In this document: piece by piece, positions 3,036 to 28,289 of the stretch
Layout of the letters: each line of letters opens with the position of its first letter
Position numbering within the stretch: position 1 is the first letter of the stretch
From: a virus
Taxonomy: Duplodnaviria > Caudoviricetes
Direction: 5' to 3' (one strand)
Virus record (IMG/VR): IMGVR_UViG_3300049781_000114
Location: 1 to 30,208 of that record
DNA: 30,208 bases
Program-made: the position numbers and the translations under genes
The notes under the pieces: model-generated
Told to the model about the DNA's origin: nothing
Seen by the model: the letters and a program-made list of their open reading frames with translations, nothing else
Databases searched by the model: none

Positions 3036-3073
3036 ATTGTCTCAGCTAGTCGCTGTCTCGCTTTCGGCTACTC
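3036..3073 (-). promoter_or_regulatory. Phage promoter P2: GAGTAGCCGA-N22-GACAAT
   Basis: Conserved decamer and spacing, upstream of the RHH and primase genes. Confidence 0.72.
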
Positions 3074-4369: not shown

Positions 4370-4636
4370 TCAGGGACGCTTGCGAGCCTGATAGTGCGCG
4401 TTGTATTCACTCTGTGCCAGAGAGCACTTTCCGCAACGGCACTTCCAATTGATGTAAGTCGCTCGCTTGCCATGCGCTTCCGGCGGAAGCGTAGAAGGGT
4501 CTCGTTCAACCCTTCGCCTGATCATGCGTCGACTGTGAAACCTCTTGCACCGATCACAACGGCATCCGTGATTCGAGTAGCAGTGTCCCGACTTCTTACC
4601 TGGACAGTCGGGACGGCATAACTTGTCTTCATTCAT
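4370..4636 (-). CDS. Cys/His-rich putative zinc-binding protein with two Y-x4-CRC-x2-C repeats (88 aa)
   Basis: HCYSNHGCRCDRC and HGKRATYINWKCRCGKC. Start overlaps the end of the upstream gene. Confidence 0.7.
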   Translation of the reverse strand: MNEDKLCRPDCPGKKSGHCYSNHGCRCDRCKRFHSRRMIRRRVERDPSTLPPEAHGKRATYINWKCRCGKCSLAQSEYNAHYQARKRP

Positions 4637-5373: not shown

Positions 5374-5411
5374 ATTTTATGACGGGAACCTCGTTTGGCA
5401 GTCGGCTACTC
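5374..5411 (-). promoter_or_regulatory. Phage promoter P3: GAGTAGCCGA-N22-TAAAAT
   Basis: Conserved decamer and spacing, upstream of the zinc-finger operon. Confidence 0.75.
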
Positions 5412-5422
5412 GGGGCTTAGGG

Positions 5423-5654
5423 GGTTTCCGGAGGTAGGGGTTAGAGGGTCCGGAAACCTAGGGGGTTTTCGGAGGGTATAAGCGCAGGTCAGATGGGTTA
5501 TCGGAGGTTTTCGGAGGTTGAGGGTCCGAATACCCTCCGGAAACCCTAGGGTCCGAAAACCTCTTTTCGCAGGTCAGATGGGTTTTCGGAGGGTTCGGAA
5601 ACCGGGTTTTCAGACCCTCTGGGGGTGTAGAGATACACCCCAGGTCCGGAAACC
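5423..5654. repeat. Iteron-like cluster of 12 TCCG(G/A)AAACC-type decamers in both orientations; probable replication origin
   Basis: Copies start at 5423, 5449, 5464, 5496, 5506, 5525, 5536, 5552, 5581, 5594, 5605 and 5645. Also two CGCAGGTCAGATGGG copies and a GAGA-loop hairpin at ~5619-5643. Confidence 0.8.
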
Positions 5655-6030
5655 TCCCGTAGTGAGTAGGGGAGAGGCTTGCAAGGTGGGGGAATGCAAG
5701 AGACCGAGAAGACTTATCAAGCCTGAGTAGGGGCTTAGTTGCTGGGGCTAGTCACTTGTCCCTAGTGGAGTTGCTGACGATGGGAAAGACCTTGAGGCTT
5801 ATCCTGTAAGCCGGACAAGGGAAGTACGTGAATTCGCCGTACCCCTCTGTTTTGTCTTTGTCAAGCCGAATCCGGATTCTTTTCCATGATTCTTTAGCGT
5901 TACTCCCTGTGTTCACCCTGCAAATTTGCTATTCCACCTTATCAATGCAGGTGAGGCCCTATTCCCGCCTTTTCTTCTAAAGGGAATACCTATGCAGTCC
6001 CTATTCGCTTATCCAAGAAAGGAAGTCGCT

Positions 6031-6543
6031 ATGCGTAATGGAAAGCCCGGAAAGCTGGGTTCTGGAGCAGAGCGGGCAGACAATGCCGCTAAGGCTTTTG
6101 GCATGTCCCTGAAGGGAATGACCAATGGTCAGATCGGTGAAGAGTTCGGTGTAAGCCGTGAAGCTATCCGCCTACTCCTCAAGGAATACATGGACTCCCT
6201 CACAACCCCTCTGGCAGAGGACATGAGGCGGACCGAGGATGACAAGCTAAACCGCCGTGAAGCGCTCCTGTGGCGTCTCCTGGACGGTAAGTACAAGGTG
6301 ACCGGTCACGGCAAGGTAGTGATTGACCTAGCGACCAACGAGCCTGTTGAAGACCTGGAGCCCATCTATAAGGCGGACGCTGCACTAGGCCGGATCGCTG
6401 AGCGTAGGGCCAAGCTATGGGGTCTCGACACACCTGTTACTCAGGAACAGAACATCACATACACAAGCCCTATTGATGAGAGCTACAAGCGACTCATTGA
6501 GCAGATGGACGCACGAGCACAGGCGGATATCGAGAGCCTTTAA
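6031..6543 (+). CDS. Terminase small subunit (HTH-containing)
   Basis: AAAGGA RBS before ATG 6031 (track start 5926 unlikely). HTH GMTNGQIGEEFGVSREAIR and RRAKLWGLD motif typical of actinophage small terminases. Upstream of the large terminase. Confidence 0.75.
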   Translation: MRNGKPGKLGSGAERADNAAKAFGMSLKGMTNGQIGEEFGVSREAIRLLLKEYMDSLTTPLAEDMRRTEDDKLNRREALLWRLLDGKYKVTGHGKVVIDLATNEPVEDLEPIYKADAALGRIAERRAKLWGLDTPVTQEQNITYTSPIDESYKRLIEQMDARAQADIESL

Positions 6544-7047
6544 CGCTCGGTCACTGCATAGGGATGCGCGGGATATGCGCGCGTTATGCGCAGGGTCAGA
6601 GGCTCCAGGGGTAAGCCGGGGTAAAGCGCTCAGGCGTAAGGCTTTGCGCTCGGGTGATCATCCTTCTCCCTCACTCCTGGTGAGTAGTGGTCGGACATCG
6701 TCTGTGTGGGACTGATCAACTACGAGCCTCTGACCTGCGGTGATTACAGCAAATCGGGGACGTCTCACAGATCTCTCACACGGGCCCCTCTTTGCTGAGC
6801 AAACCAGGGGCGGACTCTTTGCTTATGACCTGGACTGCAAAGGCTTAGCGGACTAGCGGGTGATCAGTCACGCGGATAAGTGGCCACTCATAAGCAAAGG
6901 CATTAGTCAAGCCCTTTAGGTGATTTGCTCTAAGGCCAAAGCAAACTAGATGGGGGGTACACATAGAATTGACAAAAGCCTAATCATGCGGGACCGACCC
7001 CCTTTCAATCTCACACAAGAAATCGAATACCGAAACTTGGGGTATCA

Positions 7048-8589
7048 GTGAATCCATCTCTAAGGAGGGTCTTTGAGGGAGTAGACGTAGACGCGCTCTT
7101 CACCACTGACCCCGATAAGCAGGAGGCAGCAGCCGCCTACCGTCGTGCGGCTTGCCGTACCAATCCTCTTCTCTTTGCGGCTCTCTACATGCCGCACCAC
7201 ATCACAGGTGATGAGACAGGCGGGGAAATCACCTTTGCCGAGCCGCACTTTGAGTGGGCCGACCTAGCCAAGACATGGGCCCGTAAGGGCCAGCGGAAGG
7301 CTAAGGCCAACCGGCACGCGTTCATTGCCCCTCGTAACCTCGGCAAGACAACGTGGTGGTACCTGATCCTCCCTGTGTGGTGGGCGGCTTACGGCTACAG
7401 CACGTTCTGTGTGGCGTTCGCCAACGCGGCCACTCAGGCTCAGACCCACCTAGAGACTTTCCGTACCGAGCTGGACACCAACGAGCTACTACGGAGGGAC
7501 TTCCCCGAGTTATGCGCGCTCCCTAAGAAGCGCAAGGGGATGGACAAGGGAGACACAGCCGATACGCGTATGTGCGCTAACGGCTTCATCTTCCGTGCCA
7601 AGGGAGTGGACTCCAGCTCTCTCGGTATGAAGGTGGGAGCCAACAGGCCGGACACCATCCTTCTGGACGACATTGAGCCGGACGAGTCGAACTACTCGCT
7701 AGGCGAGAAGGCAAAGCGTCTGCACACCGTGCGTGCCGCGATTCTCGCTCTCTCCATGTCCGCCCGTGTGGTGCTTACCGGCACGGTCACCATGTACGGC
7801 TCCATGGTTCACGACTTGGTCCGTTTCAATAAGGGCGAGGAAGTCGACTGGGTAAGTCACGAGAAGTTCACCGTGCACCACCACAAGCCTTTCATCCTGA
7901 ATGAGGAGACCGGAGAAGAGCGCTCCATCTGGCCGGAGCACTCCACCTTTGACCCGGACGTCATGAACGAGGACAGGCATACTCGTATCTTCAAGCTGAA
8001 CTACGAGAACGACCCTGATGCTATTGACTCGGACTACTGGGTACGTGACGACTTCACTTACGGGACTATCCCGGATGACCAGATTGCCACTACCTACCTG
8101 AGCATTGACGGTGCCGTAACGGCGGGTAAGAACTCCGACTACACCGGCATTGCAATTGTCGCCTGTGCTAACCAGCCCAAGCGGGTAATGGTCCGCTATG
8201 CCAACGCGGTGAAGCTCAAGGGTGCTGCGTTGCGTGATTACGTCCTGGACTTGCTAGAGACGTATGAAGACGTCAACTTCCTTCTTATCGAGACCAACCA
8301 GGGTGGAGACCTCTGGAAGGAAGTTTTCCATGACATGGGTGTTCCGATTCTCACCGTGCACAACAAGGTGAAGAAGGAGACTCGCGCTACCCGGCTTCTC
8401 AACCTGTATCAGCAGCGTCCTACTCAGGTATTCCACGAGAAGGTGTTGAGCAAGCTGGAAGACCAGATGTGCGAGTTCCCCAAGGGAGCCAATGACGACA
8501 TGGTCGACGCAGTAGGTACAGCCGTACTGCGTTGGATCGTTCCGGAGAAGCGCCGTAAGGCGCGAATCACTATGCGGACTCCGGTCTAG
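7048..8589 (+). CDS. terL: Terminase large subunit
   Basis: Walker A APRNLGKTT, Walker B ILLDDIE, coupling motif TGT. Nuclease acidic residues SIDGA, SDYTG, NDDMVDA. Confidence 0.93.
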   Translation: MNPSLRRVFEGVDVDALFTTDPDKQEAAAAYRRAACRTNPLLFAALYMPHHITGDETGGEITFAEPHFEWADLAKTWARKGQRKAKANRHAFIAPRNLGKTTWWYLILPVWWAAYGYSTFCVAFANAATQAQTHLETFRTELDTNELLRRDFPELCALPKKRKGMDKGDTADTRMCANGFIFRAKGVDSSSLGMKVGANRPDTILLDDIEPDESNYSLGEKAKRLHTVRAAILALSMSARVVLTGTVTMYGSMVHDLVRFNKGEEVDWVSHEKFTVHHHKPFILNEETGEERSIWPEHSTFDPDVMNEDRHTRIFKLNYENDPDAIDSDYWVRDDFTYGTIPDDQIATTYLSIDGAVTAGKNSDYTGIAIVACANQPKRVMVRYANAVKLKGAALRDYVLDLLETYEDVNFLLIETNQGGDLWKEVFHDMGVPILTVHNKVKKETRATRLLNLYQQRPTQVFHEKVLSKLEDQMCEFPKGANDDMVDAVGTAVLRWIVPEKRRKARITMRTPV

Positions 8590-8591
8590 TT

Positions 8592-8629
8592 GAGTAGCGG
8601 AAAGCAGCGAAACGAGTAAGCCTTATACT
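8592..8629 (+). promoter_or_regulatory. Phage promoter P5: GAGTAGCGGA-N22-TATACT
   Basis: One mismatch to the decamer, same 22-nt spacing, good -10 hexamer. Predicted start ~8636. Confidence 0.7.
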
Positions 8630-8636
8630 CATCCGT

Positions 8637-8854
8637 GGGTGAGTGTTCTGGTGTCTTACTCCTAGAACCCCCGTCTCTGGTCCGAATCCGGGATCAGCAA
8701 GGAACCGATTAACGCTCGGTTGAAAACGCACTGGTTACGGTCCTTCCCGGTGTGCGTCCCTTTGCAGAGAAGTCCTGTTGATGCCCAGAGACGGGGTGTC
8801 ACCCCCTTATTCGTCGGTCGGGTCTTCTGCCGCCCTCACGGGAGTCCGGCCGAC
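8637..8854 (+). ncRNA. Candidate structured ncRNA or long structured leader between terL and portal
   Basis: Nested stems 8637-42/8799-804, 8645-51/8662-68, 8669-80/8785-96 (12 bp perfect), 8693-99/8776-82, 8703-21 and 8726-57, then a hairpin at 8813-54. Begins at the predicted P5 start. Confidence 0.6.
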
Positions 8855-8976
8855 CCCCCTTCAAAACCAAGCAGCCAAGTTCGGCGCTTAGCAGTACCCA
8901 ACTTAACCAGAACTCCAGTAGCCAGGTTCGGCGGAAAAGAGGAGGTCACAAGCAACCCAGATAAGAGGTAATCATC

Positions 8977-10404
8977 ATGGCAACACCTGTAGAGCCAGGA
9001 CACAACGACCTAAACGGTCTCGACAACCTACATGCCGACTACTTAGAACTCATCAATGCGCGTCCGGAGTACGAGCGTGCCGAGTCCTTCTATGAAGGCA
9101 TGATTGAAGAGGCGTACAGCAGCCCCAAGGTTGCCCGCCTTCTTAGCCGTTTCGGCCTCAATGACCTACCGACATTGAACCTGGCCCATATTGCCGTTGA
9201 CGCTGTGATTGATCAGCTCCATCTGAACTCGGTCACCACTGAGGACAACACCCTAGACAATGTCCTTGATGACCTCCGAGACGCTAACGACCTAGATGAA
9301 GAATTCCCGATCCTTATGCAGAACGCGGGGAAGTTCGGGGACGCATACCTTTTCGTGTGGCCAAGCACTGACGAGAGTGGAAACACAGTCGGTGTCCGTA
9401 TGGAGCCACAGGACCCCCGAGTAGCACGAGTCTTCTACAGCGAAGAGAACCCGACCGTTATGGACAGGGCTATTCAGAGCTGGGAGACCGGAGCTAGGGA
9501 CACCCTTGTAGTGCGGGTGAACCTCTACTACGCGGACCACATTGAGCGTTGGTGCCACAGGGGCAAGGTTCCCAAGAACCCTAAGACTGCCAAGTGGGTT
9601 CCGTTCACTGAGGACGGCTCTCCGGCCTACATTCCGAACCCCTTCGGACAGGTGCCTTACTTCCACTACCGCACTAGCCGTCCTTATGGTCGGCCACTGC
9701 ACAAGGATGCTTACGGACCACAGCTCTACATCAACAAGCTAGTGACTTCTCACCTAGCCACCGTTGACTACCAGAGCTTCCCGCAGCGTTACGCGCTCGT
9801 GGACCCCACAGCAGACCTAGGCGGCTCTGAGAGCGGCGGCTACGACGAGGAGCACCCCGAGGACGGCATGAGCCCCGAGGGGGACGCACAGAGCCAGCTA
9901 GACACTTCCCCGTCGGCTGTCTGGAACCTGGACGGCTACAAGGAAGTAGGCCAGTTCGAGGCTGCTAACCCCGATGTGTTCCTCAAGCCCTTTGATCGCT
10001 ACATCAAGGCAATGGCTCAGGCAACACAGATTCCCTTCCAGGCTTTCGACTCCACAGGAGACGCGATCTCTGGAGAGAGCCGCCGGGTAGCTAACGAGCC
10101 CCTTTACGTGCGGGTGGAGAACCTACAGCGCATGTTCGGCTCTACCCATAAGAAGGCGTACAGGTTCGCCCTGGAGATCCTTGGTGAAGAGGCAGAAGAC
10201 CTCTCTGTTAACTGGAAGCCAGTACGGAACATCAACGACCTTAACGGTATCCAGATGCTTCTACTCAAGAAGCAGCTTGGTGTACCGGATGACGTACTTC
10301 TCGCAGAGGCCGGTTACAACTCGGCCGACATTGACTCCTGGTTAGCGGAAGCTACACCAGAAGAAGTAACACCAGACGAAACACCGAATGAAGCACCGCA
10401 GTAA
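8977..10404 (+). CDS. Portal protein (SPP1 gp6-like)
   Basis: 475 aa after terL. Motifs FYEG, FGDAYLFVW, NPFGQVP, SFPQRY and AISGESRR match actinophage portals. Confidence 0.9.
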   Translation: MATPVEPGHNDLNGLDNLHADYLELINARPEYERAESFYEGMIEEAYSSPKVARLLSRFGLNDLPTLNLAHIAVDAVIDQLHLNSVTTEDNTLDNVLDDLRDANDLDEEFPILMQNAGKFGDAYLFVWPSTDESGNTVGVRMEPQDPRVARVFYSEENPTVMDRAIQSWETGARDTLVVRVNLYYADHIERWCHRGKVPKNPKTAKWVPFTEDGSPAYIPNPFGQVPYFHYRTSRPYGRPLHKDAYGPQLYINKLVTSHLATVDYQSFPQRYALVDPTADLGGSESGGYDEEHPEDGMSPEGDAQSQLDTSPSAVWNLDGYKEVGQFEAANPDVFLKPFDRYIKAMAQATQIPFQAFDSTGDAISGESRRVANEPLYVRVENLQRMFGSTHKKAYRFALEILGEEAEDLSVNWKPVRNINDLNGIQMLLLKKQLGVPDDVLLAEAGYNSADIDSWLAEATPEEVTPDETPNEAPQ

Positions 10405-11024: not shown

Positions 11025-11106
11025 GAACCCTGCTTTACCTAATGCTTCAAGGATGCCGAGTTAGGCGAGGTGATTCAAACAATACTCACAGAAAGGCGGG
11101 CACCGA

Positions 11107-12044: not shown

Positions 12045-12082
12045 CCGGGGTGAGAGATGCCTAATCTCCACTCTCACCCCGG
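12045..12082 (+). terminator. Terminator after the capsid gene
   Basis: CCGGGGTGAGAG...CTCTCACCCCGG 12-bp stem followed by TCTTGTTT. Confidence 0.8.
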
Positions 12083-26677: not shown

Positions 26678-26708
26678 AGGCCCGGCACCCTGATTGGGTG
26701 TCGGGCCT
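26678..26708. terminator. Bidirectional terminator between the late operon and the leftward accessory operon
   Basis: AGGCCCGGCACCC-TGATT-GGGTGTCGGGCCT between convergent stop codons. Confidence 0.85.
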
Positions 26709-28251: not shown

Positions 28252-28289
28252 ATTCTATCAACGACTAGGGTTTACGCTTTCGGCTACTC
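28252..28289 (-). promoter_or_regulatory. Phage promoter P4: GAGTAGCCGA-N22-TAGAAT
   Basis: Conserved decamer and spacing. Overlaps the xis stop codon. Confidence 0.75.

Follow-up and report, generated by a model that had tools for sequence, protein, structure and literature searches.

What function does the 387-nt gap (8590-8976) between the terminase large subunit gene and the portal gene of this prophage serve? To our knowledge, the way in which actinobacterial phages hold back their structural genes and then switch them on is poorly mapped, and the gap lies directly before such genes. The DNA that we analysed, referred to here as the window, comprises all 30,208 bases of an IMG/VR provirus record whose completeness is estimated at 41%. 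PHROGs names a terL, portal, scaffold and major capsid gene, tail genes and an integrase in it, and by its sequence the source is a Streptomyces-type provirus. The nearest relatives of its portal protein are 59-85% identical and are Streptomyces proteins wherever named, and the portal identity to cultured phages is at most 35%; about 18 of these relatives, at 59-82%, come on top of the loci compared below. An 83-aa ORF inside the gap (8720-8971) was dropped, as the ORF is not preserved in relatives. By analogy with the pR'-tR' region of lambdoid phages, we propose, with a probability of roughly 0.45, that the gap is a clade-restricted regulatory cassette in which a terminated or attenuated leader RNA precedes the head genes. 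The flanking genes are as follows.

7048-8589, plus strand: terminase large subunit gene (terL), the upstream neighbour (phrog_38, E 1.5e-59)
8977-10404, plus strand: portal gene, the first of a structural cluster of ~18 kb (phrog_104, E 1.5e-60)

Homologous gaps were compared from three complete loci, L003 (S. olivochromogenes, portal 83%), L073 (G187, 74%) and L004 (S. prunicolor, 67%), and from one partial locus, L027 (portal 70%); counts out of four below refer to the window and the complete relatives, and counts out of five add the partial locus. Gap length (355-402 nt) and the order of elements are the same in all three complete relatives. Among 52 distinct loci where terL lies beside a portal gene, the full element set occurs only in the three with 355-402-nt gaps. 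In the 49 distant relatives (at most 49% identity) the gap is no longer than 120 nt in 44 cases and contains GCCCTC, the conserved loop described below, in none, which makes the cassette clade-restricted. Five heavily overlapping draws of 301-401 genomes placed only G001, G002 and G187 in the close clade. The one DNA sequencing run, possibly the origin of the record itself, showed no variants and was left out of the evidence. When the gaps were compared with each other by blastn, only one stretch of ~105 nt aligned (window and L003), so it is mainly the fold that is conserved.

On reading the sequence, the promoter copy, the TATACT hexamer, the helices and the second hairpin that the first-pass annotation had placed in the gap were all found at the positions listed here and below. 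The promoter elements are these.

8592-8601, plus strand: upstream box of the promoter, GAGTAGCGGA, set 22 nt ahead of the -10 hexamer; one of five exact copies
8624-8629, plus strand: -10 hexamer TATACT, from the sequence; TATAAT in the three complete relatives

The box, GAGTAGCSGA, occurs five times without mismatch in the window; the gap copy points rightward and the other four point leftward on the minus strand (454-463, 3064-3073, 5402-5411 and 28280-28289). With one mismatch allowed there are 13 matches where 5.0 are expected, a count reached by none of 100 shuffles, and TAnnnT lies 22 nt downstream of four of the five exact copies, the fifth having GACAAT. The same box family occurs in G187 (four copies with this spacing) and in G001, and it may resemble phiC31 promoters. 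The gap copy is degenerate in L003 and L004. All four complete loci carry a copy of the promoter motif with a -10 box ahead of the late genes, read from the sequence alone; the -10 box lies 34-36 nt past the terL stop and is followed by a GUG(A/G)G start. Placed by this spacing, an RNA start near 8635-8637 is likely. A -10-like box directly after terL is also present in distant relatives and in the cultured phage PHTowN. Two of the leftward box copies lead to proteins of 58-59 aa that look by eye like ribbon-helix-helix regulators, and these proteins could bind the box.

Downstream of the predicted start lies a structured domain with the following parts.

8635-8804, plus strand: Domain 1, beginning at the predicted GUG(A/G)G start; its length is 107-171 nt across the four complete loci
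8637-8642 / 8799-8804, plus strand: closing helix P1, GGGTGA with TCACCC, pairing computed
8645-8668, plus strand: first hairpin, 7 bp with one G-U; in three of four complete loci, absent in L073
8669-8680 / 8785-8796, plus strand: perfect 12-bp helix P3; in three of four complete loci, not found in L003
8680-8688, plus strand: motif above P3, GUCCGAAUC; GUCGAAUC in L004 and GUGACUC in L003, L073 and L027
8735-8746, plus strand: pyrimidine loop with an anti-Shine-Dalgarno-like GUCCUUC; unpaired probability mostly 0.8-1.0

Domain 1 has a folding z of -3.3 in the window and of -4.6, -3.7 and -5.2 in the complete relatives. The stretch 8637-8804 folds at -67.6 kcal/mol (z -2.97, matched by none of 200 shuffles), which bears out the expectation that it would fold better than shuffled sequence, but the whole 345-nt stretch 8632-8976 does no better than its shuffles (z -0.45). 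The z of the ~170-nt domain ranks fifth among 90 windows of the same size in the prophage (12 shuffles each, median z -0.86), and the interior of 8637-8804 is poorly determined, its minimum-free-energy structure differing from the centroid. No gap shuffle out of 100 contains a perfect helix of 12 bp, and the longest perfect helices are 11-15 bp in all four gaps, each reached by 0/100 shuffles. With hand-set registers, P3 pairs in 24/24 cells between the window and L004, with 4/12 columns changed on both sides, and in 36/36 cells once L073 is added. For Domains 1 and 2 together (the first 170-240 nt), z on the plus strand is -3.1, -5.5, -5.2 and -5.5 in the four complete loci and is lower than on the reverse strand in each of them; the 3' part of the gap has z ~0.

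The topology of Domain 1 varies. The window and L004 have a common layout, L073 keeps P1 and P3 without the first hairpin, and L003 keeps the first hairpin with neither P1 nor P3; P1 pairs with a probability of ~1.0 in the window, 0.6-0.96 in L073, ~0.4 in L004 and 0 in L003. The 168-nt three-way junction on which the first-pass annotation centred is therefore present in the window and L004 but, being whole in only two of four loci, is not a conserved core. Its expectation that the stems would covary in relatives is supported by two-sided changes in P3 and in the second hairpin, but not in L003, where P1 has no pairing probability and P3 is missing. Three finer proposals likewise apply to the window more than to the family: GGTCCGAATCC at 8679-8689 does look like a T-loop, but relatives have no T-stem and three of five loci have GUGACUC there; the alternative pairing is possible in the window but seen only there; and read-through RNA from terL is computed to lower P1 pairing from ~1.0 to 0.09 in the window but in none of three relatives. 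Loops of the type GUCCUUUC/UCCUUUC occur twice in L004 and also in L073, and L003 has none. What is most conserved in the gap, 8813-8854 and 8874-8932, lies downstream of the junction, beyond a C-rich linker that separates Domain 1 from Domain 2.

8813-8854, plus strand: Domain 2, a long U-poor hairpin with apical loop GCCCUC (8832-8837), a candidate terminator or 3' end; in all five loci

Across the sequences compared, Domain 2 is the best-conserved part of the gap. The GCCCUC of its apical region is invariant in 5/5 loci and mostly unpaired in four of them, and in every locus the hairpin has 12-18 bp and a folding energy of -23 to -31 kcal/mol, and the 8 nt after it include 1-2 U. Over the five sequences 85% of cells are paired and 10 of 16 pairs show two-sided change; 0/500 shuffles reach this covariation score, slid registers drop to 19-56%, and a hand-set 9-bp core is paired in 45/45 cells. 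These figures come from only four complete loci and one partial locus, with the structure derived from those same sequences, and we take the covariation as support for a conserved stem, not as proof. A covariance model of Domain 2 run over 62 sources scored above 45 bits only for its five training loci (next best 17 bits), and no further copy was significant when the model was run on three host genomes. A pattern scan of viral contigs gave 44 stretches, only two of them before a portal gene and both known homologues; one further match, L132, was inspected and dropped.

Could this hairpin end a transcript? It is not called by a consensus terminator scan. In a study of S. clavuligerus, 353 of 535 highly structured 3' ends belong to a 'highly structured, U-lacking' class, which its authors take to be U-lacking terminators or Rho-dependent ends, and which includes processed ends and shows more read-through than U-rich terminators (PMC8269248). 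Domain 2 fits this class as it is described there (PMC8269248). In size it is similar to two long terminator-like hairpins of the same prophage, one after the capsid gene (12045-12081, in 4/4 prophages) and one at the end of the structural cluster (26678-26708). Termination by itself leaves the invariance of GCCCUC unexplained, because a plain terminator needs no invariant loop. A pseudoknot partner in cis was sought for GCCCUC, and no conserved one was found.

Between Domain 2 and the portal gene, and again before the capsid gene, we found a short repeated element.

8874-8885, plus strand: first mini-hairpin or dyad, GCC-AAGTTC-GGC; loop 96-104 nt upstream of the portal AUG in 5/5 loci
8921-8932, plus strand: second copy, GCC-AGGTTC-GGC; loop 50-58 nt upstream of the portal AUG in 5/5 loci
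8941-8947, plus strand: GGAGGTC, from the sequence; GGAGG in 5/5 loci, with no start codon behind it
8965-8968, plus strand: likely portal ribosome-binding site, GAGG, from the sequence
11055-11066, plus strand: third copy, ahead of the major capsid gene; at -46 to -53 in 4/4 prophages

The consensus is GCC-RRG(U)NN-GGC, and in L073 the arms of the second copy are swapped to GGC..GCC. With a pattern that was loosened post hoc, the element lies ahead of the capsid gene in 14 of 35 wider relatives, against 11 of 594 control windows; it also precedes one unrelated capsid family (L169). Twin copies before the portal gene occur only in the clade that bears the insert (3/3), and elsewhere there is a single loose match (1/49). 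Scanning viral contigs for the twin pattern gave eight stretches, one of them a homologue. The short GCC(C)/(G)GGC stem, the purine-led loop and the repetition within a phage are reminiscent of lambda boxB, a short protein-binding hairpin; unlike boxB, the mini-element keeps a fixed distance to the portal or capsid start codon that follows it, and lies downstream of a candidate terminator.

Related elements were noted in other phages. A GCC-GAG(U)NN-GGC form lies ~45-55 nt before the major capsid start codons of L006, L016, L168 and L169, and another branch (L005, L009, L012, L029, L031, L033 and L037) has a GCCC-AGGTA-GGGC form before its capsid genes; we know of no family for either. PHTowN (L172) has a -10-like box after the upstream stop, TGCGGC and a GCCC-TGG(C/G)T-GGGGC hairpin at 4376-4424 and again at 8643-8700, an arrangement that thus occurs twice, before the portal gene and before the capsid gene.

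Taken as a terminated late leader, the cassette would work as follows. Host RNA polymerase would fire the gap promoter along with the leftward early promoters that have the same box, and the RNA, starting near 8635, would fold into the variable Domain 1 and the conserved Domain 2 hairpin. It would end at Domain 2, at ~220-230 nt, where the U-poor hairpin would terminate transcription or set a stable 3' end. The portal, capsid and tail genes would then be read only by read-through, with the short RNA acting as a brake on the head genes, until a phage factor lifts the block. The twin mini-hairpins are likely a separate head-gene signal, either a bound hairpin or a DNA dyad, common to the portal and capsid genes; positioned downstream of the block, they cannot load the factor that overcomes it. 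Through its exposed C/U-rich loops (GCCCUC and UCCUUUC), the short RNA may base-pair to ribosome-binding sites, so that the leader possibly doubles as an anti-Shine-Dalgarno small RNA; a search of the four prophages found no conserved target of the loops in trans. Some observations sit less easily with the late leader. Its promoter box is common to leftward early genes, and no antiterminator is named among the window proteins (34 in PHROGs, 15 in Pfam; many small early genes have no family).

The lambda pR' late leader is 194 nt long and is controlled by the antiterminator Q. Like the lambdoid pR'-tR' region, the gap places a promoter of host type, a non-coding stretch of a few hundred bases and a hairpin ahead of late genes, and its short product could display exposed seeds. 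StxS (PMC7547250) is a precedent for a terminated late leader turned small RNA. The differences are considerable: this is an actinobacterial prophage with no sequence relation to the lambdoid phages, no Q-like protein was found in it, its hairpin is U-poor, its leader follows terL instead of preceding lysis genes, its promoter box is common to early genes, and termination is predicted only. A late-operon leader was among the options of the first-pass annotation, and the comparison of relatives supports it; its broader claim of a promoter-driven structured RNA agrees with our prediction, the fold being conserved across divergent relatives.

A discrete RNA of ~220 nt is predicted by the terminated leader and also by an independent small-RNA gene, in which the promoter, Domains 1 and 2 and their own terminator would form a unit with trans-acting anti-Shine-Dalgarno loops and the mini-elements, as late promoters or entry signals of their own, would restart portal expression in the way the single copy would do for the capsid gene. 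We consider this the strongest competitor, though an improbable one. In its favour are the occurrence of the mini-element before capsid genes (14/35 relatives against 11/594 control windows, and the L169 family), the twin copies before the portal gene in the insert-bearing clade (3/3 against 1/49), and loops that are unpaired and rich in C and U. In both the window and G187, the gene immediately downstream of a leftward promoter has the site GAAAGGACCC, which complements the Domain 1 loop, but this site is outside the top eight duplex matches for either loop. The Domain 1 loop is also missing in L003, and no -10 box was found at a fixed spacing behind the 14 mini-elements. The conserved unpaired seed expected of a trans-acting anti-Shine-Dalgarno RNA is present in GCCCUC. 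Anti-Shine-Dalgarno RNAs with C-rich loops include 6C RNA and the c4-type phage antisense RNAs of P1 and P7, which are alike in showing C/U-rich loops on stable hairpins; the gap differs from them in having no Rfam match and no conserved phage target that we could find.

Doubtful, too, is the wider proposal that the gap founds a new family of ~220-nt non-coding RNA, co-regulated with early genes, whose loops would mimic the 16S rRNA tail and so sequester ribosome-binding sites, or whose Domain 1 would bind a prohead or host protein. It is equally doubtful that such an RNA was inserted together with an undescribed GCC..GGC head-gene signal before actinophage portal and capsid genes. The first-pass annotation had not recognised a family, and our searches agree: Rfam, applied to the window at gathering thresholds and to the gap and four relative loci at E 10, gave only a 13.5-bit chance match to a CRISPR repeat. 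A terminase query found no match in viral contigs, and three of the gaps had no blastn match among 50,697 phage records. Searches of the non-subscription literature found no description of the element. PMC10690425 lists 11 candidate RNAs close to portal genes, together with three short candidates from Streptomyces DNA viruses (42-76 nt), and the cassette may overlap with some of them. Apart from such an overlap, the cassette is a conserved, undescribed RNA motif set.

Two testable motifs without an Rfam family thus emerge, a structured leader with an invariant loop and a GCC..GGC element before head genes. Two cultivable Streptomyces strains, S. olivochromogenes DSM 40451 (L003) and S. prunicolor NBRC 13075 (L004), carry prophages with the leader, and the element reaches more distant phages. 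If the short RNA proves stable and trans-acting, it would represent a new phage small-RNA family.

No discrete RNA would be needed if the gap were simply a 340-nt 5' untranslated leader whose folds stabilise the late mRNA and whose mini-hairpins and GGAGG tune portal translation, a reading that we also regard as unlikely. It would suit the fixed spacing between the mini-hairpins and the start codons of the portal and capsid genes, and the varying loop length and the one arm-swapped copy are what an RNA hairpin would tolerate. In full-length folds, GGAGG or the ribosome-binding site is predicted to be paired with C-rich linkers, and the poor U-tract of Domain 2 points the same way. However, the long-range pairings vary between loci, the full leader of the window folds no better than shuffles, and an invariant loop at least 140 nt from the start codon is left without an account.

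A structural RNA that serves in the packaging motor or the prohead, on the model of phi29 pRNA, is very unlikely, and if it were true it would be a major surprise. The pRNA has a two-domain layout, and phi29-like pRNAs diverge in sequence. The gap adjoins the portal gene and resembles the prohead RNA in size and in layout: a large 5' domain, which in two loci has a three-way junction, is followed by a single-stranded linker and by a second hairpin of ~45 nt. The analogy drawn in the first-pass annotation nevertheless fails on several points. The three-way junction is whole in only 2/4 complete loci; complementary loops reach 2-4 bp at best, are self-palindromes and are not conserved, leaving no conserved kissing loops; and in 44 of 49 more distant relatives of this terminase/portal type the gap, at most 120 nt long, leaves no room for such an RNA. 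The phage also encodes a large and, probably, a small terminase subunit instead of a phi29-type ATPase, and the Rfam model of phi29 pRNA has no match in the gap.

Even less probable is a Y-RNA-like decoy for the host Ro60/Rsr protein. According to PMC4201824, X. laevis Ro60 contacts GGUCCGA, and a GNCGAAN0-1G motif is described. The window has GGUCCGA and L004 has GUCGAA, close to that motif (PMC4201824), each on a long helix as in bacterial Y RNAs, and three host genomes encode a TROVE protein. Against a decoy, three of the five loci have GUGACUC at this position, the motif is neither conserved nor 5'-terminal (26-46 nt from the 5' end), the tRNA-like module with its D- and T-arm is absent, and the window contains no TROVE gene, leaving no Ro60 gene within 4 kb. 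The Rfam YrlA model (RF02553) finds the hosts' own Y RNAs (E 2e-7 to 6e-6) and none here at E 10. YrlA-like RNAs were seen beside host TROVE genes at ~510-619 in L148-L150, and at 294-359 in L148 and L149; with 31-44 bits they fall below the Rfam gathering score of 69 and so would be missed by standard annotation. As to tRNA and tmRNA, ARAGORN finds no gene in the window; tRNA-like sequences were noted by eye on the minus strand inside the terL-portal gap of L040 (5475-5949) and L061 (5391-5976).

Chance folding of a GC-rich spacer, or inverted repeats that matter only as DNA, could draw on four other prophage windows with lower z and on reverse strands that fold as well, but is largely refuted and highly improbable given perfect helices of 11-15 bp in 4/4 gaps (0/100 shuffles each) and compensatory changes with G-U pairs on the plus strand.

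Several minor observations concern the neighbourhood of the gap. The short terL-portal gaps of L034, L037, L060, L064, L076, L077 and L151-L153 share TA..CTTCGATTC(A/G)AAGG, which by its sequence features is probably a promoter with a small hairpin. Before terL itself, a conserved GGGGGGTACACA-TAGAAT-TGACAA (window 6964-6969, L003 4000) is a candidate terL promoter. Upstream of terL, 5926-6543 carries the PHROGs label 'RNase E' (phrog_645), yet has a helix-turn-helix like sigma-70 region 4, and from this context its product is likely the small terminase. Between the divergent arms, a cluster of short repeats (family D12) occupies the non-coding region 5420-5640 and is a possible origin or packaging region.
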